Part shown: positions 5,755 to 29,543 of the stretch, piece by piece | Numbering within the stretch: the stretch's first letter is position 1 | Layout of the letters: the number at the start of each line of letters is the position of its first letter | Notes under the pieces: generated by a model | Databases searched by the model: none | What the model saw: only the letters and a program-made list of their open reading frames with translations | What the model was told of the DNA's origin: nothing | Translations under genes and position numbers: made by a program | Source: an uncultured Chloroflexia bacterium | GTDB lineage: Bacteria; Chloroflexota; Anaerolineae; JAAYZQ01 | DNA length: 64,000 nucleotides | NCBI GenBank assembly: GCA_963700285.1 | Contig: CAVOXA010000015.1 | Coordinates: 160,001 to 224,000 of the forward strand | Direction: 5' to 3'

Positions 5755-5783
5755 TTGACATCACCCCGAGCCTGTGGTATACT
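5755..5783 (+). promoter_or_regulatory. sigma70-type promoter of the fdrA operon
   Basis: TTGACA-17 bp-TATACT with an extended -10 TG. Confidence 0.75.
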
Positions 5784-6084
5784 TGGCTTCGTTCGTAACC
5801 TGGTGAGCATGTTGATTCAGCTTCCTCGCGGTTCGTGTGTTGACGACCCAGCGATATGGTGCTGAGCCTGTTGTCGTTTGATTGTCCTCTGCCCATTTTG
5901 CTGTCGGATCCAATGCCTCTGTGGCTCGAATGCGGGCCCCTTTGCGGTAGGTGATTAGACTAACCCTCGAGCTTCGGGGTACCTGGTACTGGTTTCCGGG
6001 TCGACATACAACTGATGGAACACTGCGCCCCCTGAGACACGGAAGAATCAACCAATGGCGCAGAACCAGATTGTGGGAGTACCC

Positions 6085-7827
6085 ATGGCACTTACGAAAT
6101 CGGAAATCCGGTCGGGGGCCTACTATGACTCTGTGGTGCTCATGCAATTGCAGCGCTCTCTGGCTGCCCTCCCTGGCGTCCTTGATGCCGGCGTGGTGAT
6201 GGGTACCGAGGCCAACCAAGAGATCCTGGCCCAAACTGGCCTGTTGACAGCGGAAGGTCTGGCCGGGGCGGCCGATGATTTGGTGATTGTGGTCAAGGCT
6301 GAGACTGAAGCTGAGGCTGAGGCGGCTCTGGGACAGGTGGACGAACTCCTGGCGGTGCGGAGGGGCGGTGTCGAGCAGGACTACTGTCCCAGGAGCCTGG
6401 AAGCGGCAGCCGAAATGAGGCCCGACGCTCAATGGGTGCTGATATCCGTCCCGGGTCGCTATGCTGCCGGGGTGGCCCGCCAGGCCCTGCGCCTGGGCAA
6501 GAACGTGTTCCTCTATAGCGACAACGTTTCTCTGGCCGATGAAGTCGCCCTCAAACAGACTGCCGCCGAATGCGGTCGCCTGGTGATGGGGCCGGACTGC
6601 GGTACGGCCATTGTCAACGGCGTGGGACTTGGTTTTGCCAATCGGGTGCGCCGGGGCTCAATCGGCTTGGTCGCTGCCTCGGGAACCGGTCTGCAGCAGG
6701 TCAGCGCCCGCATCCACCAGTTGGGAGGTGGCATCAGCCATGCCCTGGGTACTGGTGGGCGGGACCTCTCCGAATCTGTCGGGGCGGTGACAGCTTGTCA
6801 GGGCCTGGATCTCCTCATTCGTGATCCTGAGACCCGCGTGATTGTACTTGTCTCCAAACCTCCAGCACCCCAGGTGGCCAGTGAACTGTTGGATGTTGCC
6901 CGTTCCTCGGACAAGCCAGTCGTGGTGGACTTTGTTGGCTACTCCCCCTCTGTGCGTGAGTCGGACAACTTGCGCTTTGCTACCACCTTTGATGAGGCGG
7001 CTGAACTCGCCGTGCGCCTGGCGACGGAGGACGATGTGGGTGCTGGCCCGAAGCCGCACGGGACCGCAGTACCCACAGTGGCTGGACTGGATCGTTTCGC
7101 ACCAGGACAGCGCTATCTACGAGGGCTGTTTTCCGGTGGCAGCTTGGCCTACGAGGCCCTGCTTCTGCTGCAGGACTATGCTCCGGGGATCTTTTCTAAC
7201 GTTCCTTTGGAAAAGGATTTTGGCTTGTCCAACCCCATGGTCAGCCAGGCACATACCATGGTCGACCTGGGTGAAGATGAATTCACTGTCGGCCGTCTAC
7301 ACCCAATGATGGACCATGATCTCCGCATCCGACGGCTCCAGCAGGAAGCGCAGGATCCAGAGGTTGCTGTAATCCTACTCGACGTCGTACTGGGCTATGG
7401 GGCTCACCCGGATCCGGCTGGTGAGATTGCACCGGCTATTGCCCAAGCGCGCTCTGATGCGGCCGAAGTTGGCCGGTACCTCGAGGTGGTCGCCGTCGTT
7501 GTCGGTACCGACGAGGATCCGCAGGATATGGATACCCAGATCCAGCAACTAGAAGCGGCAGGTGCCTGGGTGGAGACCAGTAACGATACTGCCGTCCGCT
7601 ACGTTGGTCGCCTGATCCAGGCTCTTGCTCCGAAATCTAGAATCCTGAATCCTAAATCGGTAGACTTGGCTGTGCTTCACCAACCTCTGGGCGCCATCAA
7701 TGTTGGAGTGGAGTCGTTTGCCGAAAGCCTGCAGGCCCAAGGTGCGCCCGTCATCCAGGTGGACTGGCGGCCGCCGGCCGGCGGAAACGAGAAATTGATG
7801 GCGATTCTCGAACGGATGCGGGGCTAG
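6085..7827 (+). CDS. fdrA: Acyl-CoA synthetase-like FdrA (AllF family)
   Basis: YYDSVVLM, MGPDCGTA, ASGTG, GTGGRDL, DLGEDEFTVGRLHPMMD and C-terminal VDWRPPAGG. Confidence 0.92.
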   Translation: MALTKSEIRSGAYYDSVVLMQLQRSLAALPGVLDAGVVMGTEANQEILAQTGLLTAEGLAGAADDLVIVVKAETEAEAEAALGQVDELLAVRRGGVEQDYCPRSLEAAAEMRPDAQWVLISVPGRYAAGVARQALRLGKNVFLYSDNVSLADEVALKQTAAECGRLVMGPDCGTAIVNGVGLGFANRVRRGSIGLVAASGTGLQQVSARIHQLGGGISHALGTGGRDLSESVGAVTACQGLDLLIRDPETRVIVLVSKPPAPQVASELLDVARSSDKPVVVDFVGYSPSVRESDNLRFATTFDEAAELAVRLATEDDVGAGPKPHGTAVPTVAGLDRFAPGQRYLRGLFSGGSLAYEALLLLQDYAPGIFSNVPLEKDFGLSNPMVSQAHTMVDLGEDEFTVGRLHPMMDHDLRIRRLQQEAQDPEVAVILLDVVLGYGAHPDPAGEIAPAIAQARSDAAEVGRYLEVVAVVVGTDEDPQDMDTQIQQLEAAGAWVETSNDTAVRYVGRLIQALAPKSRILNPKSVDLAVLHQPLGAINVGVESFAESLQAQGAPVIQVDWRPPAGGNEKLMAILERMRG

Positions 7828-8235: not shown

Positions 8236-9504
8236 ATGGATATCGAGAAGGCCAATGCACAAGCAACCGAACGAATGATGGAATCCCGCCCGGTTCTGGT
8301 GGGGATGGGCAGGGCCATTGACGTGGTGCCCGGCATGCGCGAGAATCTGCTACTGCACGCAGGTCCGCCCCTGACCCTTCGGTCGGAACCTCAGGGCAAA
8401 GCCTGGGATCGCGCTTCTGGGCCGATGCGAGGCGCCATCACGGGAGCCCTGATCTTTGAGGGCAAAGCCAAAGGCGAAGACGATGCTCAAACCCTGATCG
8501 AATCGGGCGAGATTGAGCTGGAACCCTGCCATCACCATCAGGCTGTGGGGCCCATGGCTGGTGTGACCTGCCCTTCCATGTCGGTGTATATCCTGGAGAA
8601 CAAGACCTACGGGAACAAGTCCTACTCTAACCTTAACGAGGGCTATGGCAGGGTACTGCGCTACGGCGCCTATAGCGAGGAAGTGCTGGACCGCCTGCAC
8701 TGGATGGAGGAGGTGATGGCCCCGGTTCTGACCGGCGCTATCGAGGCCAGTGGCGGGATCGACATCCGTGCCCTGCTGGCCGAAGCCCTGCACATGGGCG
8801 ATGAGGGGCACAATCGCAACAAGGCCGGTTCGATTTTGTTCACGACCAAGCTTGCGCCTTTCATTGCCAGGGCTGCACCCAACGCTGATGTGGCAGCCGA
8901 CGTTCTGCGCGCTTTGGGCGACAATGCGCTGAGCGTCCTGAATCCGGTGATGGCCGCCTGTAAGGGGATGGCCGATGCCGCGCATGGCGTTGAGGGTAGT
9001 ACCATCGTAAGCACCATGGCTCGCAACGGCACCGATTTTGGCATTCGCGTCAGCGGCCTGGGAGATCGCTGGTTCACGGCCCCGGTCGCGGTACCAGAGG
9101 GCCTCTACTTTCCAGGTTTCACGGCTGAGGATGCCAGCGGTGACATCGGCGACAGTGTGATCACCGAGACTGCCGGCATTGGCGGATTTGCCATGGCTTC
9201 CGCGCCGGCCATCGTCACCTTTGTCAGTGGCACGCCGCGGGATGCCCTGAATGCCACCCTGGAAATGTACGAAATCTGCAGCGCCGAGCACAAGTACTTT
9301 AGCATGCCCCCCCTCGACTTTCGCGGAACGCCGACCGGCATCGACGTCCGTAAGGTCGTGGAGACAGGCATTACGCCCCGAGTCAACACTGGAATTGCCC
9401 ACAAAGATGCTGGCGTCGGTCAAGTCGGCGCCGGGCTGGTACGCCCACCGATGGCCATGTTTGAGGAGGCGTTGGTGGCTTTTGCACAAGAATACGGATA
9501 CTAG
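8236..9504 (+). CDS. ylbE: DUF1116 / YlbE-YahG family protein (AllG-like)
   Basis: LLHAGPP, PCHHHQAVGPMAG, LHMGDEGHNRN, MARNG, GDIGDS, NTGIAHK, GQVGAG. Confidence 0.9.
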   Translation: MDIEKANAQATERMMESRPVLVGMGRAIDVVPGMRENLLLHAGPPLTLRSEPQGKAWDRASGPMRGAITGALIFEGKAKGEDDAQTLIESGEIELEPCHHHQAVGPMAGVTCPSMSVYILENKTYGNKSYSNLNEGYGRVLRYGAYSEEVLDRLHWMEEVMAPVLTGAIEASGGIDIRALLAEALHMGDEGHNRNKAGSILFTTKLAPFIARAAPNADVAADVLRALGDNALSVLNPVMAACKGMADAAHGVEGSTIVSTMARNGTDFGIRVSGLGDRWFTAPVAVPEGLYFPGFTAEDASGDIGDSVITETAGIGGFAMASAPAIVTFVSGTPRDALNATLEMYEICSAEHKYFSMPPLDFRGTPTGIDVRKVVETGITPRVNTGIAHKDAGVGQVGAGLVRPPMAMFEEALVAFAQEYGY

Positions 9505-9520: not shown

Positions 9521-11194
9521 ATGGACCGCGATCAATTCATCAAAACCATGGCTGATGCCAAGTTGTACGACCTGACCCAGGGGTGCAGTATCTTTACGCC
9601 GCCCTGGCCTGGAGAGAAGGCGCTGGAAGTACACTTTTTCAAGCGCGTCACGGGTGCTTATGGCGGTGGGCTGGGTGCCAATGGCCAACTGCTCAATTGG
9701 AGCAACACGGTCGGCACTCACTTGGTGGGCGAAACCGCTTTTCATTCGAAGGGCAGGGCCATGGCGGACATCACCTTGGAAGATGTTTGTGGCCAGGGTG
9801 TTGTCGTAGACATCTCTGACGCGGTATCTGACTACAGTCTGTATACGCCCGAGATGGTCATGGAGCGGGCCACGGTCAAAAAGGGTGACATCCTCATCAT
9901 CAATACAGGCTACCATCGCTACTCTTGGGATCAACCGGATGTCCACAATCCAGAGGCCCAGGGTGGTGTCGAGTCCAAGGAATTCGGCTTCCTCGTGCGC
10001 CATCCGGGCCCCTCGCCTGACTTTTTCAAGTGGGCGCTGGAAATGGAGCTCAAAGTAGTAGGCGTGGATTGTGGGTGTGTTGAACATCCCATGAATACTG
10101 CCATCCGCTACATGCATGCGAACGAGTTCCAAAAGGCCGAAGCGAAACTGGTGCGTGACCATGGCAAGACGTGGGACGAGATGTTCCCTCCCGAGGAGTA
10201 CTATGAGCTGACTCACGTCACCATGCCCAAGGCTCACCTGCTCCTGGCAGAATCGATCGTGGGCGACATCCAAAAGTTGAACAATCAACGGGCCTGGATC
10301 ATGATCCCACCCATTCCCTACATGGAGGTCGAGACCTCGTGGTCCCGTGCTTGTGCCCTCCAGGCACCTGAGGGCATGGACGAAGAAGAATTCTTCCAGG
10401 TCATGGATTCGGCCGAGATGCTGGATCTCACAGTACCCTTTAGCGTCCAGACACCCCAGTGGGCCAACTATGTGCCACTCACCGTCACCTATACCAAGCG
10501 GGTTGGTGGGCAGAACTTTGGTATGGGCCGTAATGGCTCCATTTGCAATGCCAGCATCCACTTGGGCACCCACATGGATGGAGAAAAGCACTTTTGGCCG
10601 GCTGGCCGGACCATTGGCGAGGTCCCCCTGGAGGAATGGGTTGGTCCTGGCGTGATCGCTGATATTTCGCAACTGGTCAGCGACGCTAGTGTGTACACTC
10701 CCGGGATGATCGAAAGCGTGGTCGACGTCCGCGAGGGTGACATCCTCATCATCAAGACCGGCTGGAGCAAGTATGGCTGGTACAGCCCCGATTCGGACGA
10801 GTTCCGCTACATGATCAAGCACCCCGGCCCCTCTCCTGATTTTTCGGAATGGTGCGTGGGCAAAAAGATAAAGTGGCTTGGTGTTGATGCCGTCAGTCAG
10901 GATCATCCAATGAACACCATCCAGCGCGTCTGGCATCCCAAGACTTTTGAAGAGGCCAACCGCAAACTGATTCAAGATTTCGGCAAGGATTGGGACGAGA
11001 TGTTCCCGCTGGACCACTACTACCAGGATACACATCTGAACCTCTTCCCCGAAAAGATCGTCCACGCTGAAAATCTGGGGGGCGACATTGGAACCACGCC
11101 CAGCGGCCGGTACTATATTGGCTGCTACTTGCAGAAAGGGATGGAGATTGCCTCCATGTGGGGGCGCTTTATTGCCTTCAAAGAAAAGGAATAG
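9521..11194 (+). CDS. Tandem two-domain cyclase-family (kynurenine formamidase-like) metal amidohydrolase
   Basis: Two internally homologous halves, each with GDILII and HPGP; HLGTHMD in the second half; GGAGGG RBS before ATG 9521. Confidence 0.88.
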   Translation: MDRDQFIKTMADAKLYDLTQGCSIFTPPWPGEKALEVHFFKRVTGAYGGGLGANGQLLNWSNTVGTHLVGETAFHSKGRAMADITLEDVCGQGVVVDISDAVSDYSLYTPEMVMERATVKKGDILIINTGYHRYSWDQPDVHNPEAQGGVESKEFGFLVRHPGPSPDFFKWALEMELKVVGVDCGCVEHPMNTAIRYMHANEFQKAEAKLVRDHGKTWDEMFPPEEYYELTHVTMPKAHLLLAESIVGDIQKLNNQRAWIMIPPIPYMEVETSWSRACALQAPEGMDEEEFFQVMDSAEMLDLTVPFSVQTPQWANYVPLTVTYTKRVGGQNFGMGRNGSICNASIHLGTHMDGEKHFWPAGRTIGEVPLEEWVGPGVIADISQLVSDASVYTPGMIESVVDVREGDILIIKTGWSKYGWYSPDSDEFRYMIKHPGPSPDFSEWCVGKKIKWLGVDAVSQDHPMNTIQRVWHPKTFEEANRKLIQDFGKDWDEMFPLDHYYQDTHLNLFPEKIVHAENLGGDIGTTPSGRYYIGCYLQKGMEIASMWGRFIAFKEKE

Positions 11195-11217: not shown

Positions 11218-12096
11218 ATGAAACCGGCTCCTTTCAAATACTATGCACCGGCCACGGTTGAAGAGGCCCTGGCGCGACTGTCCGAACATGGCTGGGATGC
11301 CAAGGTGCTGGCCGGCGGACAGAGTCTGATTCCGATGATGAACTTTCGCCTGGCTCAGCCGGCTGTTCTCGTCGACTTGAACAATATCCCTGAACTGTCT
11401 TACGTCCGCCCTCTCAGAGATGGCGGCTTGCTCGTGGGGGCCATGACCCGCCAGCAGCAGCTAGAACGCGATCCATTGGTCGCCGAGCGAGCACCCATGA
11501 TCCACGCCGCGATGCCAAAAATCGCCTACTCCCAGATCCGCAGTCGAGGTACCATCGGCGGCAGCATTGCCCATGCCGACCCCTCAGCCGAACTGGTGGC
11601 GGCCAGCGTGGCCCTCAAGGGACGCTTTCGGCTCCGTCGAGGGGCCACGGAGCGCTGGGTGCCGGCCAATGAGTTCTTTGTCGGGCTCTTTACGACAGTT
11701 TTGGAACCGGACGAGCTGCTGTTGGAGGTAGCATTGCCACCTATGCCCAAGCGCACTGGATGGTCTTTCCTGGAAGTGGCCCGGCGCCACCACGATTTCG
11801 CTCTGGTGGGGGCTGCTGCCGTCGTGACCCTAGACAGGAAGGGACAATGCGAGGAGACCCGCCTGGTATACTTTAGCGTCGGCGATGGTCCCGTGGAGGC
11901 GCACCAGGCGGCAGACGTACTGAGAGGTCAAGAACCCACTCCGAAGATTATCCAGGTGGCCGCTGAGACTGCTGGTGACGCTGATCTCGATCCCAACAGT
12001 GACATTAACGCCTCGGCCGAATATCGCCGGCACCTGGCCAAGGTTCTGGGCCGGCGCGCTCTCACAGAAGCTTTTGAGCGAGTCAGTCAGGGTTAG
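11218..12096 (+). CDS. Molybdenum hydroxylase FAD-binding subunit (CoxM/XdhB family)
   Basis: MKPAPFKY, LAGGQSL, IRSRGTIGGS, HADPSAE. Confidence 0.92.
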   Translation: MKPAPFKYYAPATVEEALARLSEHGWDAKVLAGGQSLIPMMNFRLAQPAVLVDLNNIPELSYVRPLRDGGLLVGAMTRQQQLERDPLVAERAPMIHAAMPKIAYSQIRSRGTIGGSIAHADPSAELVAASVALKGRFRLRRGATERWVPANEFFVGLFTTVLEPDELLLEVALPPMPKRTGWSFLEVARRHHDFALVGAAAVVTLDRKGQCEETRLVYFSVGDGPVEAHQAADVLRGQEPTPKIIQVAAETAGDADLDPNSDINASAEYRRHLAKVLGRRALTEAFERVSQG

Positions 12097-12160: not shown

Positions 12161-12638
12161 ATGAGCGATCTGACGACTGTTTCCATTGACGTAAACGGCA
12201 CCTTCTATGAACGCGCGGTCGAGCCACGCCTGTCTGCTCAGCGATTTCCTGCGCCACGAACTGGGTCTGACCGGCACGCATGTCGGTTGCGAGCATGGGG
12301 TATGTGGCGCTTGTACCGTGTTGTTCGATGGTCAACCGGTCCGCTCCTGTTTGATGTTCGCTGTGCAGGCCAATGGCCATCAGGTCACGACTGTCGAAGG
12401 GCTGGGTACCCCGGAAAACTTGCACCCCATTCAGGAGGCATTCCGGGAAAGCCATGGCGCACAATGTGGCTTCTGTACGCCAGGCTTTCTGCTGACCCTG
12501 GTACCCTTTCTGGAGGACAATCCTGATCCCACCGAGCAAGAGATCCGCGAGGCATTAGCCGGGAACCTCTGCCGTTGTACCGGCTACCAGCACATTGTTG
12601 ATGCCGTCCAACTCGCAGCACAAAAGATGAGGGCATGA
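12161..12638 (+). CDS. (2Fe-2S) subunit (CoxS family), apparent +1 frameshift near 12232
   Basis: GCEHGVCGAC, QCGFCTPG, NLCRCTGY. The N-terminus MSDLTTVSIDVNG...EPRL lies in another frame after a GGAGG RBS. Confidence 0.88.
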
Positions 12639-12743: not shown

Positions 12744-15086
12744 GTGACGAAAAAGTACGTTGGCCAGCGCATGACCCGAACCGAAGATCCAAAGCTCCTA
12801 ACCGGGCAAGCCCTGTTTGTGGACGATGTCCAAGTGCCTGGGATGTTGCACGCGGCTTTCTTGCGCAGTGACTATGCCCATGCCCGCCTGAAGAGCCTGG
12901 ACGTGGCCGCTGCACGGGAGCGTCCTGGTGTGGTGGCTGTCTTTACTGCTGAGGATATGGGCGCCGCTTGGCGACCCAGTCCTCCTAACGTGTCACCTCC
13001 ACCTGGCATGCCGGGCGTTACCTTTTTTTCACGCACGCCGGTGCCCCTCGTGAAGGACAAGGTCAGGCACGCAGGAGAGGCGCTGGCTTTGGTTATCGCT
13101 GAGAGCCGCTACATTGCTGAGGATGCTGTCGAAGACATTTGGGCCGACCTGGAGCCACTGGGTGCTGTGGTGGACCTGGAAACGGCCCTGGATCCCGGCG
13201 CGACCCTCGTCCACGAAGACTTGGAATCCAACTTGGCCGCCCACCTCATCCAGGAGAAGGGGGACTATGAGGCGGCTCGGAAGCAGGCTGACGTGGTCGT
13301 CAAGCGACGTATCACCATCGACCGCGGTGCGGCTGGGGCCATGGAGAACAGGGGCATCGTTGCCCACTGGGAGCCAAAGAGTGAGCACCTGACGTTGTGG
13401 GATACAACCCAGGCTCCCATCCCCATCCGCAACGGTCTGGCAGCACTGTTTGGCCTGGCGGCACCCCAGGTACGGGTCATCGCTCCCTTTGTCGGCGGTG
13501 GTTTTGGGCCCAAGATCATGTTGTACTATCCCGAGGAAGTCGTCCTCACCTGGGCGACGATGCAATTGGGCAAACCCATCAAGTGGATCGAAGATCGCCG
13601 GGAGAACTTTTTCGCTACCACTCAGGAACGCGGCCAGGTCCACTATGCCGAGATAGCGGTCACCAAAGAAGGGCGCGTATTGGGGATTCGCCATGACTTT
13701 GTTCACGACACGGGTGCCTACAACCCCTATGGCTTGACGATTCCCCTCAATACACAAAGTCATTCCATGGGCGCCTATGACATCGCCAACTACTATTCCG
13801 AGCTCAAGGTTGTCTTTACCAACAAGACAATTGTCACGCCGGTACGCGGAGCTGGACGGCCACAGGGCATCTTTCTGGCGGAGCGATTGATGGACCTTGC
13901 TGCCAAAGAACTGGGTATGGACAGGCTCGAGATCCGGAAAAAGAACCTCATCCCACCTGACGCCTTCCCCTACGAGCACAAGATCATTGACCAGGCATTT
14001 GCTCCGCTGATGTATGACAGCGGGAACTATGCAGCCACGCTGGAAAAAGCAGCCGCCATGATCGGCTACGAAAAGTTCCTGCAAGAGGAGCAACCTCGAC
14101 TCCGGGCCGAGGGTAAGCACGTAGGTCTCGGCATTGTGCCCTTTGTCGAAACGTCGGGCGTTGGGCCCTACGAGGGTGCCCGGGTCACCGTCGAGACCGA
14201 TGGCCGGGTGAGCGTTGCCACGGGGGTTGGTACGCAGGGACAGGGCCACTTTACCTCTTTTGCCCAGATCGTAGGCGACCAACTGGGTGTGAGCCCGCGC
14301 AAGGTGCGCGTGGTGACGGGTGATACGTCCGAATTCCACTGGGGAACAGGTACCTTTGCCTGTCGGGGCGCTGTCGTCGCAGGCAATGCCATCAACGCAG
14401 CGGCGTTGTCAGTCCGGAAAAAGGTCCTTGCCCACGCCAGCAAGGTGCTGGAAACACCCGAGGAGGAGCTAGAGTTGGTGGATGGCCTGGTCCGAGTGGC
14501 TGATCTGCCGCAGCAGTCAATCAGTCTGGGTGAACTGGCAGCGATGGCCAATCCGCTGCGGGGTGCGGTTGAGCCAGGAACCGAGCCTGGCCTGGAGGCT
14601 ACTGACTACTTTGGCCCCCGCTATGGCGCTGTGGCCAACGGCGCCCACGCCCTGATTCTCGAGGTCGATCCAGAGACGATGATGATCGAGATTAAGCGCT
14701 ATGTGACTGTCGAGGATTGTGGTACGATACTGAATCCCCTGATCGTGGACGGCCAGATCCATGGCGGTGTGGCCCTGGGCATAGCCAACTCTTATTACGA
14801 GCAGCTCATCTATGATGACAACGGGCAGCTTCTCAACGCCTCGCTGGCTGATTATCTGATCCCCACGGCTACTGAGATCCCGAGGATCGAGATCGGGCAC
14901 GAGAATACGCCCACGCCGCTCAACCCCATTGGCAACAAAGGTGTTGGTGAAGGCGGCGCTATCCCCGTGCCGTCCGCATTTGCCCAAGCCATTGAGGACG
15001 CACTGGCCGACTATGGCTTGGAAGTGCTTGAGATGCCGTTAAGTCCCAATCGGCTGTTCGAATTGCTCTATCAACGTGATGCGTAA
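12744..15086 (+). CDS. Molybdopterin-binding large subunit (CoxL form II-like / XDH family)
   Basis: VGGGFGPK, PVRGAGRPQ, QGQGH, GQIHGG, KGVGEG. Confidence 0.92.
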   Translation: MTKKYVGQRMTRTEDPKLLTGQALFVDDVQVPGMLHAAFLRSDYAHARLKSLDVAAARERPGVVAVFTAEDMGAAWRPSPPNVSPPPGMPGVTFFSRTPVPLVKDKVRHAGEALALVIAESRYIAEDAVEDIWADLEPLGAVVDLETALDPGATLVHEDLESNLAAHLIQEKGDYEAARKQADVVVKRRITIDRGAAGAMENRGIVAHWEPKSEHLTLWDTTQAPIPIRNGLAALFGLAAPQVRVIAPFVGGGFGPKIMLYYPEEVVLTWATMQLGKPIKWIEDRRENFFATTQERGQVHYAEIAVTKEGRVLGIRHDFVHDTGAYNPYGLTIPLNTQSHSMGAYDIANYYSELKVVFTNKTIVTPVRGAGRPQGIFLAERLMDLAAKELGMDRLEIRKKNLIPPDAFPYEHKIIDQAFAPLMYDSGNYAATLEKAAAMIGYEKFLQEEQPRLRAEGKHVGLGIVPFVETSGVGPYEGARVTVETDGRVSVATGVGTQGQGHFTSFAQIVGDQLGVSPRKVRVVTGDTSEFHWGTGTFACRGAVVAGNAINAAALSVRKKVLAHASKVLETPEEELELVDGLVRVADLPQQSISLGELAAMANPLRGAVEPGTEPGLEATDYFGPRYGAVANGAHALILEVDPETMMIEIKRYVTVEDCGTILNPLIVDGQIHGGVALGIANSYYEQLIYDDNGQLLNASLADYLIPTATEIPRIEIGHENTPTPLNPIGNKGVGEGGAIPVPSAFAQAIEDALADYGLEVLEMPLSPNRLFELLYQRDA

Positions 15087-21423: not shown

Positions 21424-21459
21424 AATGGTTGTCCAATCTTGTGCTGTAGCGAGGGAGCC

Positions 21460-22488
21460 ATGCAGACTGCGAGGCTGGGCAAGACTGAACTGTGGGTATC
21501 CAGGGTGGGATTTGGCGGCATTCCCATTCAGCGTTTGACTGAGGCGCAGGCAATCCGCGTGGTACATACCAGCCTGGACCTGGGTGTTACCCTTCTTGAC
21601 ACGGCCAATGGCTACACGACCAGTGAAGAGCGCATCGGCAAAGCATTGGCCGCCATGCCGGGACAGCGGCAGCAGGTCGTCATCGCGACCAAAACGGGAG
21701 CACGAGACGCCAACGGGGCTCAGGAACATCTGGATCTGAGTCTGAAGCGGCTGCAAATAGAGGCCATCGACCTATGGCAGTTCCACAACGTCAGTACGCT
21801 CGAGGCGTACGAAAAGGTGCTTGGGCCAGGCGGAGCGATGGAAACGGCGCGGCGGGCCCAGGAAGCGGGCAAGATCCGCCACATTGGCATCACCAGCCAC
21901 TCGATGGACATGGCCCTGAAAGCTGTATCTTCAGGCTACTTTGAGACGATCCAATTCCCCTTTAACTTTGTCACGAACGAGGCCGCGGAGCGATTGGTCC
22001 CCTTGGCCAGGGAGCATGATCTGGGCTTCATCGCCATGAAACCTTTTGCTGGCGGATTGCTGGATGACGCCAACCTGGCACTCAAGTACCTGCTGCAGTT
22101 CGAGGGCGTCGTACCTGACCCAGGTATCGAGGTAGTTGAGGAGATCGAAGAGATCGCCGGCGTCGTCTCTGGGTCGTGGGCTCTCTCAGTCCAGGAGCAG
22201 CGCAAGATGGAGCGCATCCGTGACGAGGCCGGTACGCGCTTTTGTCGTCGCTGTGGCTACTGTGAACCCTGCGAGCAGGGTGTACGCATTTCCCTGGTTA
22301 TGAACCTGCGAAGCGCTATGCAGCGTTTCCCAGCCGACAGATTGAGTGCTGGGCCGCTCGCCGATGCCGTGGAAGGCGCCAGACATTGTATTGAGTGCGG
22401 CGAGTGCGAAGAGAAATGCCCGTATCACCTGCCAATCCGTGAGATGATCTGGGAAAATCTCGAGTATTACGATAGCGTGGTATCTTGA
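21460..22488 (+). CDS. Aldo/keto reductase with C-terminal 4Fe-4S dicluster
   Basis: GFGGIPI, DTANGY, IATK, AMKP; CRRCGYCEPC and CIECGECEEKCP. Confidence 0.92.
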   Translation: MQTARLGKTELWVSRVGFGGIPIQRLTEAQAIRVVHTSLDLGVTLLDTANGYTTSEERIGKALAAMPGQRQQVVIATKTGARDANGAQEHLDLSLKRLQIEAIDLWQFHNVSTLEAYEKVLGPGGAMETARRAQEAGKIRHIGITSHSMDMALKAVSSGYFETIQFPFNFVTNEAAERLVPLAREHDLGFIAMKPFAGGLLDDANLALKYLLQFEGVVPDPGIEVVEEIEEIAGVVSGSWALSVQEQRKMERIRDEAGTRFCRRCGYCEPCEQGVRISLVMNLRSAMQRFPADRLSAGPLADAVEGARHCIECGECEEKCPYHLPIREMIWENLEYYDSVVS

Positions 22489-22543: not shown

Positions 22544-23422
22544 ATGAAACTTATCGATCTGACTATTCCTCTGGGCATTGGTACACCGCCGTGGCCCACC
22601 TATGAGCCGTTGCAGGTCAAGTATTTCAAGCGGTTGGCCCCCAACGGGGCCAATGGCCAGTTGCTCACCCATTCGAACCACCTAGGTACGCACCTGGATG
22701 GTGAGATTCACTTTTACACCCCCGGCAAGGACATCGCCCAGTTGGAGCTGAACGATTTCTTGGTAGGTCCGGGCGTTGTCGTGGATCTCTCCGATGCCAC
22801 CGGCGATTACCAGATCTATACCTCAGAGATGATCGAGGAGCGTGTAGAGGTCCGGGATGGCGACATCCTTATCATCCATACCGGTTACCACCACTTTGGC
22901 TGGGACATGCCCCATGCCGACGAAGTCCGCTACATGGTCCAGCACTCTGGTCCAGACCGGGAGTTCACCGAATGGGCCAAGGAGAAAAAGATCAAGTGGA
23001 TCGGAGTTGACTGTGGCAGTGCCGACCATCCCATGAATACCATCATTCGCGACTGGATGCCCCGCCAGGCCGCCGAGGCCGACAGGGTTTTCCAGGATAT
23101 GTACGGCGCGACCCTGGCCGAGCGCTTTACGCCAGACAAGTACCAGTTGATGCACCTGGAGATGTTCCCCGACCATATCATTCATGCCGAGTGCGTCGGT
23201 GGGGAGATCGACCTGCTGGTCAACCGGCGGGCCACCATCGGCTTCTTCCCTTGGCGCTTTGTCGACGGAGAGTCCTGCATCGGTCGCTGCGTGGCCATGG
23301 TCGACGATGACGAGTACGAGGAGCTGATGGCCCGCAAGGCGGAACTGCCCCAGACCCGCTTCGGCGATTGCTATGATCCGGAGCACGTGGAGCGGATCAA
23401 GCGGTTGACCAAGCGCTTCTAG
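22544..23422 (+). CDS. Cyclase-family metal amidohydrolase
   Basis: HLGTHLDG, GDILIIHTG, GVDCGSADHP; similar to both halves of 9521..11194. Confidence 0.9.
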   Translation: MKLIDLTIPLGIGTPPWPTYEPLQVKYFKRLAPNGANGQLLTHSNHLGTHLDGEIHFYTPGKDIAQLELNDFLVGPGVVVDLSDATGDYQIYTSEMIEERVEVRDGDILIIHTGYHHFGWDMPHADEVRYMVQHSGPDREFTEWAKEKKIKWIGVDCGSADHPMNTIIRDWMPRQAAEADRVFQDMYGATLAERFTPDKYQLMHLEMFPDHIIHAECVGGEIDLLVNRRATIGFFPWRFVDGESCIGRCVAMVDDDEYEELMARKAELPQTRFGDCYDPEHVERIKRLTKRF

Positions 23423-23523: not shown

Positions 23524-23583
23524 GTCATACCCTGATCGTAACGTATCGTCCAAAGCGACGTTGATTTGTGAGGAGATAGCTTG

Positions 23584-24792
23584 ATGCAACCACTAGAAGG
23601 TATCCGTGTGCTGGACCTGACCCGAATTCTGGCCGGGCCCTACTGTACCATGATGTTGGGCGACCTGGGGGCGGACGTAATCAAGGTAGAGCAACCTGGC
23701 CGGGGCGACGATTCACGAAGTTGGGGACCGCCGTTTGTGGGTGAGTCCTGCGGGCCTTTTCCTGGTGAGGCAGCCTACTTTTTGGCCGCCAACCGGAACA
23801 AACGTGGAATTACGGTCAATCTCAAGGCGCCAGAAGGGCGGGAGATCGTACGCCAGCTGGCGCGTGCCTCGGATGTGCTGGTGGAGAATTTCCGCGGCGG
23901 TACCCTGGAACGGATGGGGCTGGGCTACGAGGATCTGCGAGGTCTGAATCTACGCCTTGTCTACTGTTCTATCAGTGGCTATGGCCGTACTGGCCCTTAC
24001 GCTGATCGGCCCGGCTACGATTTCATCATCCAGGCTGAAGGCGGGATGATGGGTATCACCGGGCCCGAGGAGGGGCAGCCGTATCGGGTTGGGATCCCTA
24101 TCGTGGACATTGCGACTGGTATGTTTGCGAGTACGGCCATTTTGGCCGCGCTCCGGGCCCGCGATTTGACGGGGGAAGGACAGTACGTGGATATGTCCCT
24201 CCTGGATTCACAGGTGGCGGTGCTGACCAACGTGGCATCCAACTATCTGGTTGGGGGGCAGGGTCCGCGGCGGCTGGGCAATGCACACCCCAACATCACG
24301 CCCTACGAGGCTTTTCGCGCACGGGACAAGTGGTTTGCCCTGGCTGCGGGCAATGAACGGCAATGGGCCATCCTGTGCAACGTTATCGACCGGCCAGAGT
24401 TGAAGGACGATCCTCGTTTTGTCGACAACAGTAGCCGGGTGGCGAACCGGGCAGTGCTACGCGAGGTGCTTGATGGCGCCTTTGCAGCACGTGACGCTGC
24501 CGAGTGGCTGGCCGAGTTCCGCAGCGCCGGGCTCCCTTGCGGGCCGATCAATTCGGTTCCGGAGGTCTTTCAGCATCCCCAGGCCGAAGCTCGGTCGTTC
24601 GTGCTGGAGGCTGAGCACCCGACTGCCGGTACGGTACGGTTTCCCGGATTCCCCTATAAACTCTCCGCGACCCCTGCGGCCATACGCCGGCCACCCCCAC
24701 GGTTGGGCGAGCACACGGAAGAGGTGCTGCAGGATCTGCTGGGCTATGCTGCCGAGGAGGTGTCGGCCCTCCGAGAACGCGAGGTTGTGTAG
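23584..24792 (+). CDS. CaiB/BaiF (class III) CoA-transferase
   Basis: PLEGIRVLDLTRILAGP, NRNKR, DVLVENFR, SISGYG, PPPRLGEHT. Confidence 0.93.
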   Translation: MQPLEGIRVLDLTRILAGPYCTMMLGDLGADVIKVEQPGRGDDSRSWGPPFVGESCGPFPGEAAYFLAANRNKRGITVNLKAPEGREIVRQLARASDVLVENFRGGTLERMGLGYEDLRGLNLRLVYCSISGYGRTGPYADRPGYDFIIQAEGGMMGITGPEEGQPYRVGIPIVDIATGMFASTAILAALRARDLTGEGQYVDMSLLDSQVAVLTNVASNYLVGGQGPRRLGNAHPNITPYEAFRARDKWFALAAGNERQWAILCNVIDRPELKDDPRFVDNSSRVANRAVLREVLDGAFAARDAAEWLAEFRSAGLPCGPINSVPEVFQHPQAEARSFVLEAEHPTAGTVRFPGFPYKLSATPAAIRRPPPRLGEHTEEVLQDLLGYAAEEVSALREREVV

Positions 24793-24857
24793 AGACGAGC
24801 GCATCTGGGAATCTGTACAGACCCTTCTAGTGCGTACAGAGTAAGGAGGTGACTGAG

Positions 24858-25751
24858 GTGTTTGCCAGGCCTGGTTTGCCCAGCTTTGACTATGTTCGAC
24901 CGGGCACAGCCGATGAGGTGACCGGCCTCTTGCAGGAGCACGGTGAGGCCGCGCGGCTATTGATGGGCGGTACCGACCTGTTCCCTGGCTTGCGGGATGG
25001 CGCATTCCGTCCCAAGGTAGTCGTGGACGTCAAGGGCTTGCCCGGCATGGGCGACATCTTGTTCGACAGGGAAACAGGGCTGACCGTCGGAGCGGCCGTG
25101 ACGATGAACGCTTTGGCCAACCACCCAGACGTGCAGGTGCATTATCCGCTGCTGGCCGAGGCGGCCGGAACGGTAGCGTCTTATCAGATACGCAACCGAG
25201 CTACCCTCGGTGGCAACCTGTGCAATGCTTCTCCTTGCGCTGACACATCTCCGGCAACGCTTGTATTGGAGGCTCACTTTGGCCTGTACGGTCCCAGTGG
25301 GCAGAGGACTGTCCCCGCCGGCGAGTTCTTTGTCGGGCCAGGCCAGACAGTGCTCCAGCCTGGCGAGCTGATGACGGCCATCCGCTTCCCACCCCTGCCA
25401 GCCGGTGCAGCGGGCCGCTACCTCAAGCTGGGCCGCTGCAAGTCAGGTGACCTTGCCCTCGTCGGCGTGGCCATCCTCGGTTACCCTGACGGGACGCGTT
25501 CCGGATACAAGCATCGCCTTGGGCTGGGCTCGGTCGCACCGACGCCGTTGCGGGTGGAGGAAGCAGAAGATATCCTAGCCGTGGCGCCCCCGGGAGAAGA
25601 TGCCTTTGTCCTGGCCGCCGAGAGGGCGATGGGGGTCGCTTCCCCCATTAGCGACGTCCGCGGCGGCGCGAGCTACCAGAAGGCCATGGTGCGCGCGCTC
25701 ACGCTGCGCGGCTTGCGAGATGTCTGGAAGCAGATGAAGGAGGGAGAGTGA
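24858..25751 (+). CDS. Xanthine dehydrogenase-family FAD subunit
   Basis: GGTDL, QIRNRATLGGN, ASPCAD, PISDVRG; AAGGAGG RBS (alternative start 24849). Confidence 0.92.
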   Translation: MFARPGLPSFDYVRPGTADEVTGLLQEHGEAARLLMGGTDLFPGLRDGAFRPKVVVDVKGLPGMGDILFDRETGLTVGAAVTMNALANHPDVQVHYPLLAEAAGTVASYQIRNRATLGGNLCNASPCADTSPATLVLEAHFGLYGPSGQRTVPAGEFFVGPGQTVLQPGELMTAIRFPPLPAGAAGRYLKLGRCKSGDLALVGVAILGYPDGTRSGYKHRLGLGSVAPTPLRVEEAEDILAVAPPGEDAFVLAAERAMGVASPISDVRGGASYQKAMVRALTLRGLRDVWKQMKEGE

Positions 25752-25752
25752 C

Positions 25753-26226
25753 GTGGCTACACACGCAATCACCCTGACGGTGAACGGCGCCAAGGAGCGC
25801 CTGGACGTCCCCTCTAACATGACCCTGCTGCAAATGCTTCGGGAGAAACTGGCCCTCACCGGCACCAAGAATGGCTGCGAGGCTGGGGAGTGTGGGGCCT
25901 GTACCGTGTTGCTGGACGGCGAACCGGTAAACTCGTGCATGGTGCTGGCTGTTGAAGCCGATGGCCGGGAGGTCTTGACGGTAGAAGGGCTGGCCCCGGA
26001 GGGGGGATTGAGACCTTTGCAGGAGGCATTTGTGGAGCACAACGCTGTACAGTGTGGCTTCTGCACGCCAGGAATGCTGATGTCGGCGACCGCATTGCTG
26101 GAGCGGAATCCAGAGCCAACTGAGCAAGAGATCAGAGAGGCGCTGGTCGGCAACCTGTGCCGCTGCACGGGCTATGTACGTATTGTCGACGCCGTTCAGG
26201 CAGCAGTGAGCAGAGGAGGTGCGTAG
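25753..26226 (+). CDS. (2Fe-2S) subunit of the second Mo hydroxylase
   Basis: GCEAGECGAC, QCGFCTPG, NLCRCTGY. Confidence 0.93.
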   Translation: MATHAITLTVNGAKERLDVPSNMTLLQMLREKLALTGTKNGCEAGECGACTVLLDGEPVNSCMVLAVEADGREVLTVEGLAPEGGLRPLQEAFVEHNAVQCGFCTPGMLMSATALLERNPEPTEQEIREALVGNLCRCTGYVRIVDAVQAAVSRGGA

Positions 26227-26227
26227 A

Positions 26228-28585
26228 ATGGCCAATCTTGCCTCTGAGGGGTTCACTTCTGAGCCCGTTGGCAAAAGTGTGCCGCGCATCGATGCCTACG
26301 AAAAGGTCACTGGGTCGGCAGTGTTTTCCGATGACCTGCAGTTTGGTCCTGGGCTCTACTATGGGCGTCTGGTCCGGAGTCCTCACGCCCATGCTCTGAT
26401 CAAGGACATCAACGTAAACAAAGCCCTGGAGATGCCCGGCGTCAAGGCCGTCGTTACAGGGGAGGATGTACCCAACAATATCGGTCTGTACCTCATCGAC
26501 CGGCCCATCTTTGCCCGGGGCCGCGTCCGTTACGTCGGCGAACCCGTCGCCGGAGTTGTAGCCACCAGCGAGGAGATAGCCCACGAGGCGGTCCAACTCG
26601 TCGAGGTGGAATACGAGGAACTGCCAGCCGTATTTGACCCGATACGGGGCGCTCAGCCTGATGCGCCTTTGCTCCACCCAAACTTGGGCGAGTACGAGGT
26701 CGCCAACTTTATCTTTCCTAACCCAGGTACCAACATTTCGGAGCATTTCAAGCTACGCCGTGGGGATGTGGAAGCGGCATGGTCCCGATGCGCGGCCGTC
26801 GTGGAGGGGACCTTCCATTTGCCCCAGATCCAGCACGTGCCTATCGAACCCCATGTTGCTGTGAGTCACTGGGAGGGATCTGGGGAGGTCACCTTGTGGA
26901 CCTGCTCCCAGTCGCCCTTTGCTCAGCGCGATTTGGTGGCTCAGAGTCTAGGCATCCCCCACGGCAACCTGCGGGTGGTGGCGCCCTACGTCGGCGGTGG
27001 CTTTGGCGGCAAGGCCGGCATTTCTATGGAGGTCTGCGCGGTGGTTATGGCCCGGGCAGTCAAGGGGCATCCGGTCAAGCTGCGCATGACGCGCGAGGAG
27101 GAGTTCATCGGCACGTCGGTGCGCCAGAGCCTGGTAGCTCAGACCAAGATCGGCTGCGACGCTGAGGGCAACCTGCTGGCCATGGAGACCCAGTATTACT
27201 TTGGCGGTGGAGCCTACAACGACTATGGTGTCAACGTCGCCCGAGCAGCAGGCTACTCGTGTACCGGTCCCTACTTGATCCCTAATGTCAAGGGTGATTC
27301 CTACTGCGTTTACACGAATCAACCCATCGGCAGCGCCATGCGCGGCTTTGGTATGCCCGAGATCCATTGGGGCATCGAGCAGATCATAGACCAGCTTGCC
27401 GAAAAGATCGCGATGGATCCCGCCGAGTTCCGGCGGCGCAATTGCGTCAAGACCGATGCCACCATCCTGACCGGTATGAAGATGCCGCCCATTGACCTGG
27501 TGGCCTGCATCGACAAGGCTACCGAGGCAGTCAACTGGGGCAGGACAGAGGCTGCCTCTGCTCCGCACAAGGTACGCGGCAAAGGCCTGGCCATCATGTG
27601 GAAAGCTCCAGCCATGCCGCCCAATCCCGGCAGCGCCGCCATCATTCACTTTAACGAGAACGCCACGGTCAATGTCTTGATCGGCGCCCAGGACCTGGGC
27701 CAGGGCGCCTTCACCGTCCTGGCCCAGATGGCGGCCCAAGCTCTGGGTGTGCCATACGAATGGGTGAGTGTCTCCGTACCGGTGGATACCAAGTACAGCC
27801 CCTACGAATGGCAGACGGTTGCCAGCCGTATCACCTGGTCCACCGGCAATGCGGTGCGGTCGGCGGCCCTAGATGCCCGACGGCAGATCCTGGAGGTCGT
27901 GGCCAAGCACTGGGGCGAAACCCCAGAAGATCTGGATATCAAGGATGGTGTGGTCTTTTCCTACCGGTCCGAGGAGGAGCAGCCACTTCAGAACATGGTC
28001 GTCTACGGGCTGCCCAACGAGGGCTTTGAGGGTTGGAAGGGAGGCCCCATCGTCGGTCAGGGGAAATTCATGCCCACCTATGTCACTAATCTTGATTTCG
28101 AGACTGGTCAGGGCACCCGTGCTGTCGTACACTATACCGTCGGCGCCCAGGCGGTTGATCTGGAGGTTGACACCGAGACCGGGGAGATCGACGTGCTCAA
28201 GATCGCCAGCGTGTACGATGTGGGCAAGGCCATCAACCCCGATCTGATCCTGACCCAGATCGAGGGTGGGGCAGTGCATGGCATGAGTTCGGCTTATGAG
28301 GCGCTCCATTTTGACGAAAAGGGGCGGCCTCTGAACCCGAATATGGTCGACTACCGTATCGCCACGGCCATGGATACTCCCGGCGAGATCCACGGCGACT
28401 TTGTCGAGACGCCGTTGGAGGATGGCCCCTGGGGCGCTCGGGGCGTGGGCGAACACGTGATGGTCCAGACCGCGCCGGCCATGGCCAATGCCATCTACGA
28501 TGCGCTGGGTATTCGCTTCAGCGAACTACCACTTTCGGCGGAGAAGGTCTTTTTGGCTTTGCAGGACCTACCTGCAGAGAGCTAG
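26228..28585 (+). CDS. Xanthine dehydrogenase-family molybdopterin-binding subunit
   Basis: VGGGFGGK, AMRGFG, DLGQG, TVASR, QIEGG, RGVGE. Confidence 0.93.
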   Translation: MANLASEGFTSEPVGKSVPRIDAYEKVTGSAVFSDDLQFGPGLYYGRLVRSPHAHALIKDINVNKALEMPGVKAVVTGEDVPNNIGLYLIDRPIFARGRVRYVGEPVAGVVATSEEIAHEAVQLVEVEYEELPAVFDPIRGAQPDAPLLHPNLGEYEVANFIFPNPGTNISEHFKLRRGDVEAAWSRCAAVVEGTFHLPQIQHVPIEPHVAVSHWEGSGEVTLWTCSQSPFAQRDLVAQSLGIPHGNLRVVAPYVGGGFGGKAGISMEVCAVVMARAVKGHPVKLRMTREEEFIGTSVRQSLVAQTKIGCDAEGNLLAMETQYYFGGGAYNDYGVNVARAAGYSCTGPYLIPNVKGDSYCVYTNQPIGSAMRGFGMPEIHWGIEQIIDQLAEKIAMDPAEFRRRNCVKTDATILTGMKMPPIDLVACIDKATEAVNWGRTEAASAPHKVRGKGLAIMWKAPAMPPNPGSAAIIHFNENATVNVLIGAQDLGQGAFTVLAQMAAQALGVPYEWVSVSVPVDTKYSPYEWQTVASRITWSTGNAVRSAALDARRQILEVVAKHWGETPEDLDIKDGVVFSYRSEEEQPLQNMVVYGLPNEGFEGWKGGPIVGQGKFMPTYVTNLDFETGQGTRAVVHYTVGAQAVDLEVDTETGEIDVLKIASVYDVGKAINPDLILTQIEGGAVHGMSSAYEALHFDEKGRPLNPNMVDYRIATAMDTPGEIHGDFVETPLEDGPWGARGVGEHVMVQTAPAMANAIYDALGIRFSELPLSAEKVFLALQDLPAES

Positions 28586-29543
28586 ACATCCACAGGAACC
28601 CTGTCAGGGTATCTGCCCCAGAGGTGTGACCATGGGACAGGACGTTCGTCGCAGTGTTCACGAGTTGATCTTCTCTGCCTTTTGCCAATGCATCCAGTAG
28701 ATGATGCCAGGCAGCGCTGCATTCTCCCTCTGCTGCTGCCCTGAGAAAAGCCGCAGAGAGTATTGTGGTCCGAGGTGCAGCCATCTCGATGATCTCATAA
28801 CAGAGGCGGCGGGGAGTAGGGTGGGCTAGCCAGGCCCAGAGCATGAACCCGATCAGAAAATCATCGCCAGCTGGCGTGAGGCCACTCCCCAGCCCCGCCA
28901 GTTGCGTGGCACCCTCTCGCAGTGAAGTCGTGTCCCCCTTCCACCCGATTTGTAGAGCTTCTGCGCCAGCCAGGGCTGACGCGAGAAAGGCGAGAGCGAG
29001 GTCCTGTCGTAAGGGATCCGATGGAGCCCCTTGTACCCCACCTCGCATTTCGCTCCTTCTGGTCTGCAGTCCGCCCGACTCGGACAGCCCCATCGTCAAG
29101 AGCGTGAGCAGGCTACCTTGGGGGTTTTTGGACAGGGCGATAGATTGCAGGAGGGCAAGCCGCTGCGTGATAACCCGCTGATAGACCCTAAGGCGCTCCC
29201 AGAGGGCCCGGGGCTCCCAGACCCTGGCTTCGCTCAGGGCGATGACCAACTCGCCAACTTGCAGGTGCCTCCCGGTCAAATGGGCTGGCATCCCCGGCTT
29301 GACAGCGGCAAAAACGCCTTGCTCGCCGTCGATCACGATGTTGAGTGGCCCATCGCCGATCTGAGGCAACACCAGAGTGGCCACGGTACCGTCGGAGGTC
29401 ACCAGACTGCAAGCTCGATCAAATACAGCCAACACCCGGGTGACGAGCGTCTCCCCCTCGATCTGCTCCCATACCCGGCGGCTAATGGAGCGGGCTCGCA
29501 GATCCGCTTTCTGCGGTTCGATTACAGCGTGACTTTTAGGCAA
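28518..29543 (-). CDS. DUF2877 / YlbF family protein (AllH-like)
   Basis: LAGLGSGLTPAGDDFLIG, TTILS, GHTSGADTLTG. Confidence 0.88.
   Translation of the reverse strand: MPKSHAVIEPQKADLRARSISRRVWEQIEGETLVTRVLAVFDRACSLVTSDGTVATLVLPQIGDGPLNIVIDGEQGVFAAVKPGMPAHLTGRHLQVGELVIALSEARVWEPRALWERLRVYQRVITQRLALLQSIALSKNPQGSLLTLLTMGLSESGGLQTRRSEMRGGVQGAPSDPLRQDLALAFLASALAGAEALQIGWKGDTTSLREGATQLAGLGSGLTPAGDDFLIGFMLWAWLAHPTPRRLCYEIIEMAAPRTTILSAAFLRAAAEGECSAAWHHLLDALAKGREDQLVNTATNVLSHGHTSGADTLTGFLWMSSSLQVGPAKPKRPSPPKVVVR

Follow-up and report, generated by a model that had tools for sequence, protein, structure and literature searches.

We analysed a 64,000-nucleotide stretch of DNA (hereafter the window), positions 160001-224000 of contig C15 in genome G000, from an uncultured Chloroflexota bacterium whose nearest relatives are Chloroflexota/Anaerolineae metagenome-assembled genomes. 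The window holds a catabolic block of about 24 kb (hereafter the island), with genes for an FdrA-AllG-AllH enzyme, two three-subunit molybdenum (Mo) hydroxylases (Mo1, with subunits M1, S1 and L1, and Mo2, with large subunit L2), a tandem and a single cyclase-family metallohydrolase (the latter cyc1), a class III CoA-transferase and a BMP-type ABC importer. We consider it probable (about 0.7) that the island encodes oxidative breakdown of uracil and thymine via barbiturate, with the ureido half of the ring saved as carbamoyl phosphate and not released as urea. An initial annotation of the same DNA had already listed the island genes other than CoxG, and all those listed were recovered by Pfam and NCBIfam scans (31 and 30 window open reading frames, ORFs, with 24 further window ORFs scanned separately). 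Our results bear out its picture of an apparently undescribed catabolic island, here found to be conserved, whose AllFGH-like enzyme is likely supplied by Mo-dependent hydroxylation and by cyclases that open the ring; they do not bear out its purine-like substrate, as neighbourhoods and trees point to uracil and thymine, and in place of its oxamate-like product a malonamate-like one is favoured.

In the proposed route, the BMP-type ABC system would import a base or nucleoside, and Mo1, Mo2 or both would use water to hydroxylate C6, the products being barbiturate or 5-methylbarbiturate. cyc1 and the active C-terminal domain of the tandem cyclase would then open the ring to ureido(methyl)malonate, replacing barbiturase, and FdrA-AllG-AllH would use phosphate to convert this into (methyl)malonamate and carbamoyl phosphate, from which a carbamate kinase encoded outside the island would make ATP. 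Amide hydrolysis, followed by the CoA-transferase, would give (methyl)malonyl-CoA, which would then be decarboxylated; for the amidase of this step, searches with the module queries found no orthologue in this genome. Work on E. coli AllFGH describes the reversible conversion of oxalurate and phosphate to oxamate and carbamoyl phosphate (PMC11326118), and ureidomalonate is oxalurate with one additional CH2, so the same reaction would transfer directly.

The window is a merger of two conserved Chloroflexota modules, each with a Mo hydroxylase, a cyclase and FdrA/AllG, that share one FdrA/AllG/AllH set. Neighbourhoods were compared for cyc1 (the best 80 loci from a scan of 29 of 64 database parts) and for the tandem cyclase (again the best 80 loci); neighbour counts are lower bounds, many loci being short contigs. 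Near cyc1, L2 was found at 49 loci, AllG at 48 and FdrA at 48, along with a GNAT-like gene (41), a thiolase (35), an OB-fold protein (29), an NCS2 permease (18), a carboxyltransferase (15), a Na+-pump beta subunit (14), a nitrilase (13) and a cytosine deaminase-like gene (3). The 14-15 loci with carboxyltransferase and Na+-pump genes carry a Na+-type (methyl)malonyl-CoA decarboxylase set, which speaks for the proposed route and of which the host genome has parts. The tandem cyclase was accompanied by AllG at 68 loci, M1 at 61, FdrA at 51, L1 at 50, CoxG at 43, NmrA at 41, a nitrilase at 31, the BMP importer at 24, the CoA-transferase at 19 and a UraA-like NCS2 permease at 17, and at none of the 80 loci did BMP importer and NCS2 permease occur together. 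Co-occurrence of the island genes is well above chance. The initial annotation had proposed this comparison and would have taken a lack of co-occurrence as grounds for rejection; the genes occur together widely across genomes. Moreover, a cyc1 orthologue at 77% identity or more is present in 8 of 300 Chloroflexota genomes, and all 8 have the tandem cyclase as well; the distribution of the cyclases was surveyed in Chloroflexota, Actinomycetota and haloarchaea. At about half of the loci cyc1 is followed by the GNAT-like gene, whose product of about 230 aa has no Pfam match (L015:247-945 and homologues), together with the thiolase and OB-fold genes.

Both Mo large subunits group with barbiturase-linked enzymes and not with purine enzymes in the phylogenies that had been called for (FastTree, with Shimodaira-Hasegawa, SH, supports). 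In the L1 tree (68 rows) a 33-row clade (SH 99) unites L1 with barbiturase-linked Actinomycete enzymes and with Dormibacter enzymes, while CoxL-like paralogues from other contexts, at 39-47% identity, fall outside it. The corresponding clade of the L2 tree (12 of 37 rows, SH 100) includes an enzyme of genome G843 that adjoins a true barbiturase and another beside a cytosine deaminase-like gene; E. coli XdhA and XdhD and the purine enzymes of the host lie elsewhere. L2 is a member of the xanthine dehydrogenase (XDH) superfamily, and it scores under all the curated XDH cut-offs (XdhA/XdhB/PucD models: 541 against 780, 307 against 849 and 415 against 784). L1 likewise stays under the CO dehydrogenase cut-offs (TIGR02416, 543 against 991; NF040766, 868 against 950); its best solved match is CoxL 8UEM, with quinoline 2-oxidoreductase and 6-hydroxypseudooxynicotine dehydrogenase also among the best. 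Plasmid searches with L2 returned 36-39% matches only, with no clear bearing on its role.

The presence of Mo1 and Mo2 was scored in 34 cyclase-positive genomes taken from 57 positives among 300 Chloroflexota. Five genomes (G006, G051, G132, G148 and G260) carry cyc1, the tandem cyclase and Mo1 with no L2 match at 1e-120. In two others (G228 and G252), which have no L1 match at 1e-140, a cyc1-like gene and AllFGH adjoin a Mo2-like enzyme (42%). Because relatives carry either enzyme alone, the two look interchangeable and do not appear to catalyse sequential steps, which argues against two successive hydroxylations of a bicyclic ring. What distinguishes the window is the presence of both Mo lineages, each linked to barbiturase in its tree, and both cyclases in one block. 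Mo hydroxylases draw their oxygen from water, and the earlier description of the pathway as oxygen-independent fits this chemistry, although aerobic Actinomycetes have this core as well.

The cyclases are predicted to stand in for barbiturase as ring openers. The metal motif reported for the family, HxG[T/A]HxD (PMC6117287), is kept in cyc1 (80 of 80) and in the C-terminal domain of the tandem protein (79 of 79), while its first His and its Asp are replaced in the N-terminal domain of the latter in all 74 orthologues scored. The three PF04199 domains previously noted are thus present, but because of this loss the island probably has two active cyclase sites and not three. A Rhodococcus ruber plasmid (L085) has a more distant cyclase (40%) whose neighbours are Rieske oxygenases, a pair of nitrilases and a divergent DUF1116 gene, a context that we liken to methylxanthine N-demethylation.

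The FdrA-AllG-AllH proteins are related to those of E. coli. FdrA is 38% identical to AllF and 43% to YahF, AllG is 47% identical to AllG and 50% to YahG, and AllH is 35% identical to E. coli AllH over 116 aa; both FdrA motifs that were checked are common to the window FdrA. In trees the window FdrA and AllG stand apart from E. coli AllF and AllG, with weak deep nodes (SH 50-87). Each of 35 barbiturase-bearing Actinomycetes has a best match of 51-58% to the window AllG. In E. coli K-12 the yahE-yahF-yahG-yahI-yahJ locus (L369) includes yahJ, whose product resembles cytosine deaminase (26%), and the uncharacterised Yah genes possibly encode a related acyl-urea pathway.

The genomic company of true barbiturases provides a further connection. 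An Embleya record combines allG-fdrA-allH, an NCS2 permease, M1-S1-L1-coxG, a nitrilase and a carbamate kinase with a true barbiturase (577 bits to 5HWE, against 319 for the next match). G843 has, in addition to its L2-type enzyme, a true barbiturase (568.7 bits to 5HWE, against 303.9 for the next), two GNAT-like genes, AllFGH and a carbamate kinase. Among 80 barbiturase loci from a scan of 20 of 64 database parts, 64 have an adjacent carbamate kinase; within 10 kb of the barbiturase, a CoA-transferase 31-47% identical to that of the window is found at 26 loci, an L1-type enzyme at 3 and an L2-type enzyme at 0. In most of the Actinomycete loci examined (L289-L368, L371-L378, L399-L410) the carbamate kinase lies directly 5′ of the barbiturase, and the same supercluster holds HydA/HydB, CoA-transferase, carboxyltransferase and AllFGH. 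This association of carbamate kinase and AllFGH with barbiturase suggests that carbamoyl phosphate, and not urea, is the usual product in Actinomycete barbiturase loci.

The association holds at the level of genomes. All of the 35 isolate genomes picked from the 80 barbiturase loci have AllG, and 29 of them have an L1 homologue on the same contig within 20 kb; of the remaining 6, three have AllG and L1 on different contigs and three give no L1 match at 1e-150. Across 251 evenly sampled Actinomycetes, taken as a control, a barbiturase-family gene and AllG occur together in 62 genomes, the former alone in 6, AllG alone in 8 and neither in 175, so that an AllG homologue is present in 62 of the 68 genomes with a barbiturase-family gene and in 8 of the 183 without one (60 of 66 among 249 Actinomycetes when the unpublished genomes G755 and G946 are left out). 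The cyclase subfamily of the window and barbiturase are nearly mutually exclusive: the former was found in 2 of the 35 barbiturase genomes (at 41%), and of the 34 Chloroflexota with the cyclase, AllG is present in 31, while a gene of the Toblerone family, to which barbiturase belongs, is present in 2 that lack AllG. At Dormibacter-type loci (n = 80) a related cyclase occurs with M1-S1-L1 and a Toblerone-family gene, with an amidase at 77, L1 at 71 and a cytosine deaminase at 27. The Toblerone proteins of these loci (L184, L193-L272) are closest to Frankia 5HY0, which belongs to group V; one member of this group is reported to be neither AtzD- nor Bar-like (PMC3758960). The two such genomes examined lack AllG, so the Dormibacter-type Toblerone protein may take the place of AllFGH there by hydrolysing ureidomalonate.

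Transport genes also favour a pyrimidine. All 34 NCS2 permeases recovered from module loci keep the equivalents of UraA S72, F73, E241, H245 and Y288-N291, reported as uracil-binding residues (PMC5539350), while XanQ and UacT of E. coli depart from UraA at H245 and E290; this uracil-type signature counts for a pyrimidine substrate. Cytosine deaminase neighbours were seen in Chloroflexota, Dormibacter-type, Actinomycete and haloarchaeal loci. On haloarchaeal plasmids a 50%-identical cyclase lies beside a Mo hydroxylase, which falls outside the L1 clade, and CoxG, with neighbours that variously include cytosine deaminase, codB, CoA-transferase, thiolase/OB and urease genes. A division of the two modules between uracil and thymine was sought in the permeases, which did not separate them, as both Chloroflexota NCS2 paralogues keep Phe at UraA position 73. 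Actinomycete NCS2 proteins (L284, L285) have Ala there, where the Chloroflexota keep Phe. Ala at this position may admit thymine. The best solved relative of the class III CoA-transferase is succinate-hydroxymethylglutarate CoA-transferase.

Several points weigh against the pyrimidine assignment. The island is known here from its genes, whose content, conservation, partners and tree positions were observed directly, and the activity of each protein is deduced from them. The trees do not include the characterised Rhodococcus uracil/thymine dehydrogenase, so the label "uracil dehydrogenase" rests on barbiturase linkage; node supports are of the SH type, and the L2-barbiturase link comes from one genome (G843). 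The genomes counted are kin, and the counts overstate their independence. The window itself is without a UraA-type permease or cytosine deaminase, its BMP protein has an atrazine-binding protein as best solved relative and is 33% identical to a BMP protein of the host purine cluster, and the haloarchaeal NCS2 permease beside the related cyclase is purine-type. Orthologues of the nitrilase, amidase, GNAT-like, thiolase and cytosine deaminase genes of the modules were not found in the genome with these queries; its best nitrilase match is 33%, compared with about 50% among module members. Both active cyclase domains have a KynB-type Glu, a residue reported as possibly marking linear-amide activity or a binuclear site (PMC6117287).

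This last point lends some weight to a variant of the pyrimidine route with one or both cyclases working on the opened ring, where they would hydrolyse ureidomalonate or malonamate and cover for the missing amidase. The lack of a nitrilase or amidase orthologue would be explained by it, and at Dormibacter-type loci ring opening could fall to the Toblerone-family protein encoded with the cyclase. We regard the variant as unlikely, given the nitrilase that accompanies the tandem cyclase at 31 of 80 loci and the minimal clusters L180 and L190 (Mo1, one cyclase, AllFGH and an amidase), where no other candidate ring opener was seen among the ORFs examined and whose genomes lack the Toblerone family; moreover, the gene missing from the two Toblerone-bearing genomes is AllG and not the cyclase. 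Less probable still is the purine reading of the initial annotation, taken as two hydroxylations of a purine or another bicyclic N-heterocycle, ring opening by the cyclases and entry into AllFGH as oxalurate. The activity of E. coli AllFGH on oxalurate (PMC11326118), the resemblance of the BMP protein to a triazine binder and to the purine-cluster BMP, and the superfamily of L2 all suit a purine, but L2 falls below the XDH cut-offs and outside the clade of XdhA, XdhD and the host purine enzymes, the two Mo enzymes occur singly in the seven genomes named above, the permease signatures are uracil-type and the host has a separate purine cluster. Purine as the main substrate was rejected on permease residues, trees and genome-wide searches.

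About equally improbable is a different monocyclic N-heterocycle or modified pyrimidine (a hydroxypyridine, 5-hydroxymethyl- or N-methyl-uracil, or a pseudouridine-derived base), degraded by paralogues recruited from a uracil pathway. The quinoline and pseudooxynicotine enzymes among the solved relatives of L1, the CoA-transferase nearest to glutarate-type enzymes, and the doubling of Mo enzymes and cyclases, which suggests more than one substrate, would be in keeping with this. Carbamoyltransferases of this kind require an N-acyl-urea, which pyridines cannot supply, and both Mo clades have barbiturase-linked members. That the island is a decaying relic, no longer functional in this strain, is very improbable. 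Comparison with intact relatives shows frameshifts in five genes (S1, bmp, the ABC ATPase and both permeases). The nitrilase located between fdrA and allG in relatives is missing, the 408-bp gap between these genes yielded no remnant of it, and nmrA is found some 10 kb upstream. Against this, the same five genes are intact in the closest relative, every catalytic gene except S1 is intact, and near-identical contigs from sequencing runs lack the extra bases: the base at 17399 is absent from run contigs in three of four runs compared, those at 17805, 19340, 20228 and 20288 are absent in the contigs of one run and that at 19493 in two, while the S1 break is outside the reach of any informative run contig. 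Since the extra bases are missing from run contigs, the importer frameshifts are most likely assembly errors. Near-identical contigs over bmp also occur in RNA runs X3 and X5; contigs cannot show transcription, and these were not counted as evidence.

The host genome (89% complete, 6.5% contamination) gives no sign of a complete canonical route that would account for AllFGH, as the initial annotation had allowed for. No uricase was found genome-wide; matches to the AllB, AllC, AllD and YgeW models are all below cut-off in this 89% complete assembly (the best for AllD at 29%), and the Toblerone-fold barbiturase profile (PF09663) has 0 matches, the same profile finding the family in other genomes. 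The window, as previously noted, has none of the allantoin-pathway, uricase, carbamate kinase or ygeW-type genes among the 31 and 24 ORFs scanned. A reductive pyrimidine route in the host was considered and rejected, the PreA model scoring 189 against a cut-off of 335. A separate purine cluster (C1:1672000-1704000; L167, L168) has ssnA-like, 8-oxoguanine deaminase and ygfK-like genes, two XDH-family enzymes, two BMP importers, a carbamate kinase, two tandem aspartate/ornithine transcarbamylase (AOTC)-like genes (31-32% to YgeW) and two pyridoxal phosphate enzymes, and possibly encodes a variant 2,8-dioxopurine pathway. The genome has two carbamate kinase homologues, in an arginine deiminase operon and in the purine cluster, one of them over the cut-off. 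Na+-pump beta, biotin-carrier and carboxyltransferase genes are also present.

The coordinates of the island features are collected in Table 1. The block is opened by fdrA and the DUF1116 gene and closed by the DUF2877 gene, as first described, with the refinement that the last, allH, is on the minus strand; its 3′ end overlaps that of L2 by 68 bp, and its orientation is identical in L001, L003 and L015. Three sigma70-like sites, each matching the consensus at 11 of 12 positions, split the block into three putative sub-operons, and with about 1.5 such sites expected by chance per 19.4 kb in this genome they give these modest support.

Table 1. Features of the island, in window coordinates.
Feature	Position	Strand	Remarks
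Putative sigma70-like promoter site	5755..5783	+	heads fdrA-coxG unit; 11/12 consensus; hexamers kept in near relative L100
FdrA (AllF-like) subunit	6055..7827	+	PRK06091, 537 bits against cut-off of 433
AllG/DUF1116 subunit	8236..9504	+	PF06545
Tandem cyclase-family metallohydrolase, predicted ring opener	9521..11194	+	PF04199 twice; start 9521 set from full-length relatives
Mo hydroxylase 1 FAD subunit (M1)	11218..12096	+	PF00941/PF03450
Mo hydroxylase 1 2Fe-2S subunit (S1)	12161..12638 (start ~12161)	+	frameshift near 12240 in this assembly
Mo hydroxylase 1 large subunit (L1), CoxL-like, predicted uracil/thymine hydroxylase	12744..15086	+	loop PVRGAGR; tree clade
CoxG/SRPBCC accessory protein	15103..15822	+	PF06240; absent from list of initial annotation
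Putative sigma70-like promoter site	16080..16108	+	precedes importer; 11/12 match
BMP-type ABC importer: binding protein, ATPase, two permeases	16217..21319	+	several likely assembly frameshifts
Putative sigma70-like promoter site	21396..21423	+	precedes akr-cyc1-coat-Mo2 unit; 11/12 match
Aldo-keto reductase with 4Fe-4S domain	21439..22488	+	accessory; orthologue at 1/80 cyc1 loci only
Single cyclase-family metallohydrolase (cyc1), predicted ring opener	22544..23422	+	PF04199; weak KynB matches
Class III CoA-transferase, dicarboxylate type, predicted activator of (methyl)malonate or its amide	23581..24792	+	solved-relative match
Mo hydroxylase 2 (M 24849-25751, S 25753-26226, L or L2 26219-28585), predicted second pyrimidine hydroxylase	24849..28585	+	loop SAMRGFG
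AllH/DUF2877 subunit	28518..29543	-	PF11392; convergent with L2

A nitroreductase gene (29585-30277, minus strand) lies upstream of allH on the same strand, has a weak match at 1 of 80 cyc1 loci and is probably outside the pathway. On the other side, nmrA (C15:155730-156575), placed after the tandem cyclase in 41 of the 80 relatives, is separated from fdrA by a block of PP2C, VWA, FHA and Ser/Thr kinase genes (window 19-5635). Elsewhere the window contains genes for glycosyltransferases and others without relation to the island, including a long glycosyltransferase/Wzt polysaccharide cluster (36947-59248, minus strand).

Taken at its fullest, the evidence might describe a complete, undescribed and oxygen-independent pathway for uracil and thymine, a reading that we hold tentatively and at somewhat less than even odds. 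Two unrelated Mo lineages would have converged on pyrimidine C6, and two cyclase-fold barbiturase analogues, one of them a pseudo-dimer with a single active site, would serve barbiturate and 5-methylbarbiturate; an AllFGH-type "malonamate carbamoyltransferase" would yield ATP. The same ending would be usual in barbiturase-bearing Actinomycetes, making the urea-releasing textbook route exceptional, and the substrate-orphan group V Toblerone would be the hydrolytic stand-in. That the paired Mo enzymes and cyclases reflect a uracil/thymine split, parallel to barbiturase and HydA/HydB in Actinomycete clusters, is a guess by analogy. If the proposed route is correct, an ATP-conserving, oxygen-independent branch would be added to pyrimidine catabolism, by which sediment Anaerolineae would recycle nucleic-acid nitrogen. 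Testable reactions would be available for the cyclase subfamily, the "form II CoxL" clade often mislabelled as CO dehydrogenase, the XDH-like clade and the non-allantoin AllFGH homologues. The route would also supply candidates for 5-methylbarbiturate ring opening, to which, to our knowledge, no enzyme has been assigned. Furthermore, where allFGHK genes outside enterobacteria are at present taken to indicate oxalurate use, as in nitrifiers that have them next to biuret genes (PMC12625717), they may often have another meaning.

Comparison with known systems helps to place the island. The 2,8-dioxopurine route is a form of anaerobic nucleobase catabolism that also proceeds via carbamoyl phosphate. 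None of its genes (ygeW-ygeX-ygeY-hyuA-ssnA) is in the island, and ygfK-, ssnA-, hyuA- and ygeY-like genes lie elsewhere in the host genome. The loop of form I CO dehydrogenase is AYXCSFR. Aerobic CO dehydrogenase and form II CoxL-like enzymes share the M-S-L-CoxG order of Mo1 and provide the best solved match of L1, whereas the loop of L1 differs from that of form I and its scores stay below cut-off. Isatin hydrolase, KynB and HpoH (PMC6117287) have in common with cyc1 and the tandem C-domain the PF04199 domain and metal motif, and isatin hydrolase is a precedent for cyclic-amide opening; the island cyclases are a distinct subfamily (best solved match, E 3e-08), with a motif ending in DGE instead of DxP, an invariant HPMNT and one degenerate domain.

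The two closest counterparts are E. coli AllF-AllG-AllH with AllK (PMC11326118) and the classical oxidative pyrimidine pathway of uracil/thymine dehydrogenase, barbiturase and ureidomalonase (PMC3758960). With the former the island shares three subunits and a predicted acyl-urea phosphorolysis to carbamoyl phosphate. It differs in a host without allB, allC or allD above cut-off, in the lack of an adjoining carbamate kinase, in a separate, convergent allH, in subunits nearer to barbiturase-linked homologues and slightly nearer to YahF/YahG, and in a predicted substrate one carbon longer. With the classical pathway it shares the predicted Mo-dependent oxidation to barbiturate and hydrolytic opening to ureidomalonate, and its Mo enzymes cluster with barbiturase-linked homologues, while cyclases take the place of the Toblerone barbiturase and AllFGH-like genes stand where ureidomalonase releases urea, with no unassigned island ORF left that could be ureidomalonase. 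Our literature search, whose reach excluded most subscription papers, found no description of such a route. In its gene set the island works like the classical oxidative pathway with an AllFGH ending, and it is a member of neither known system.

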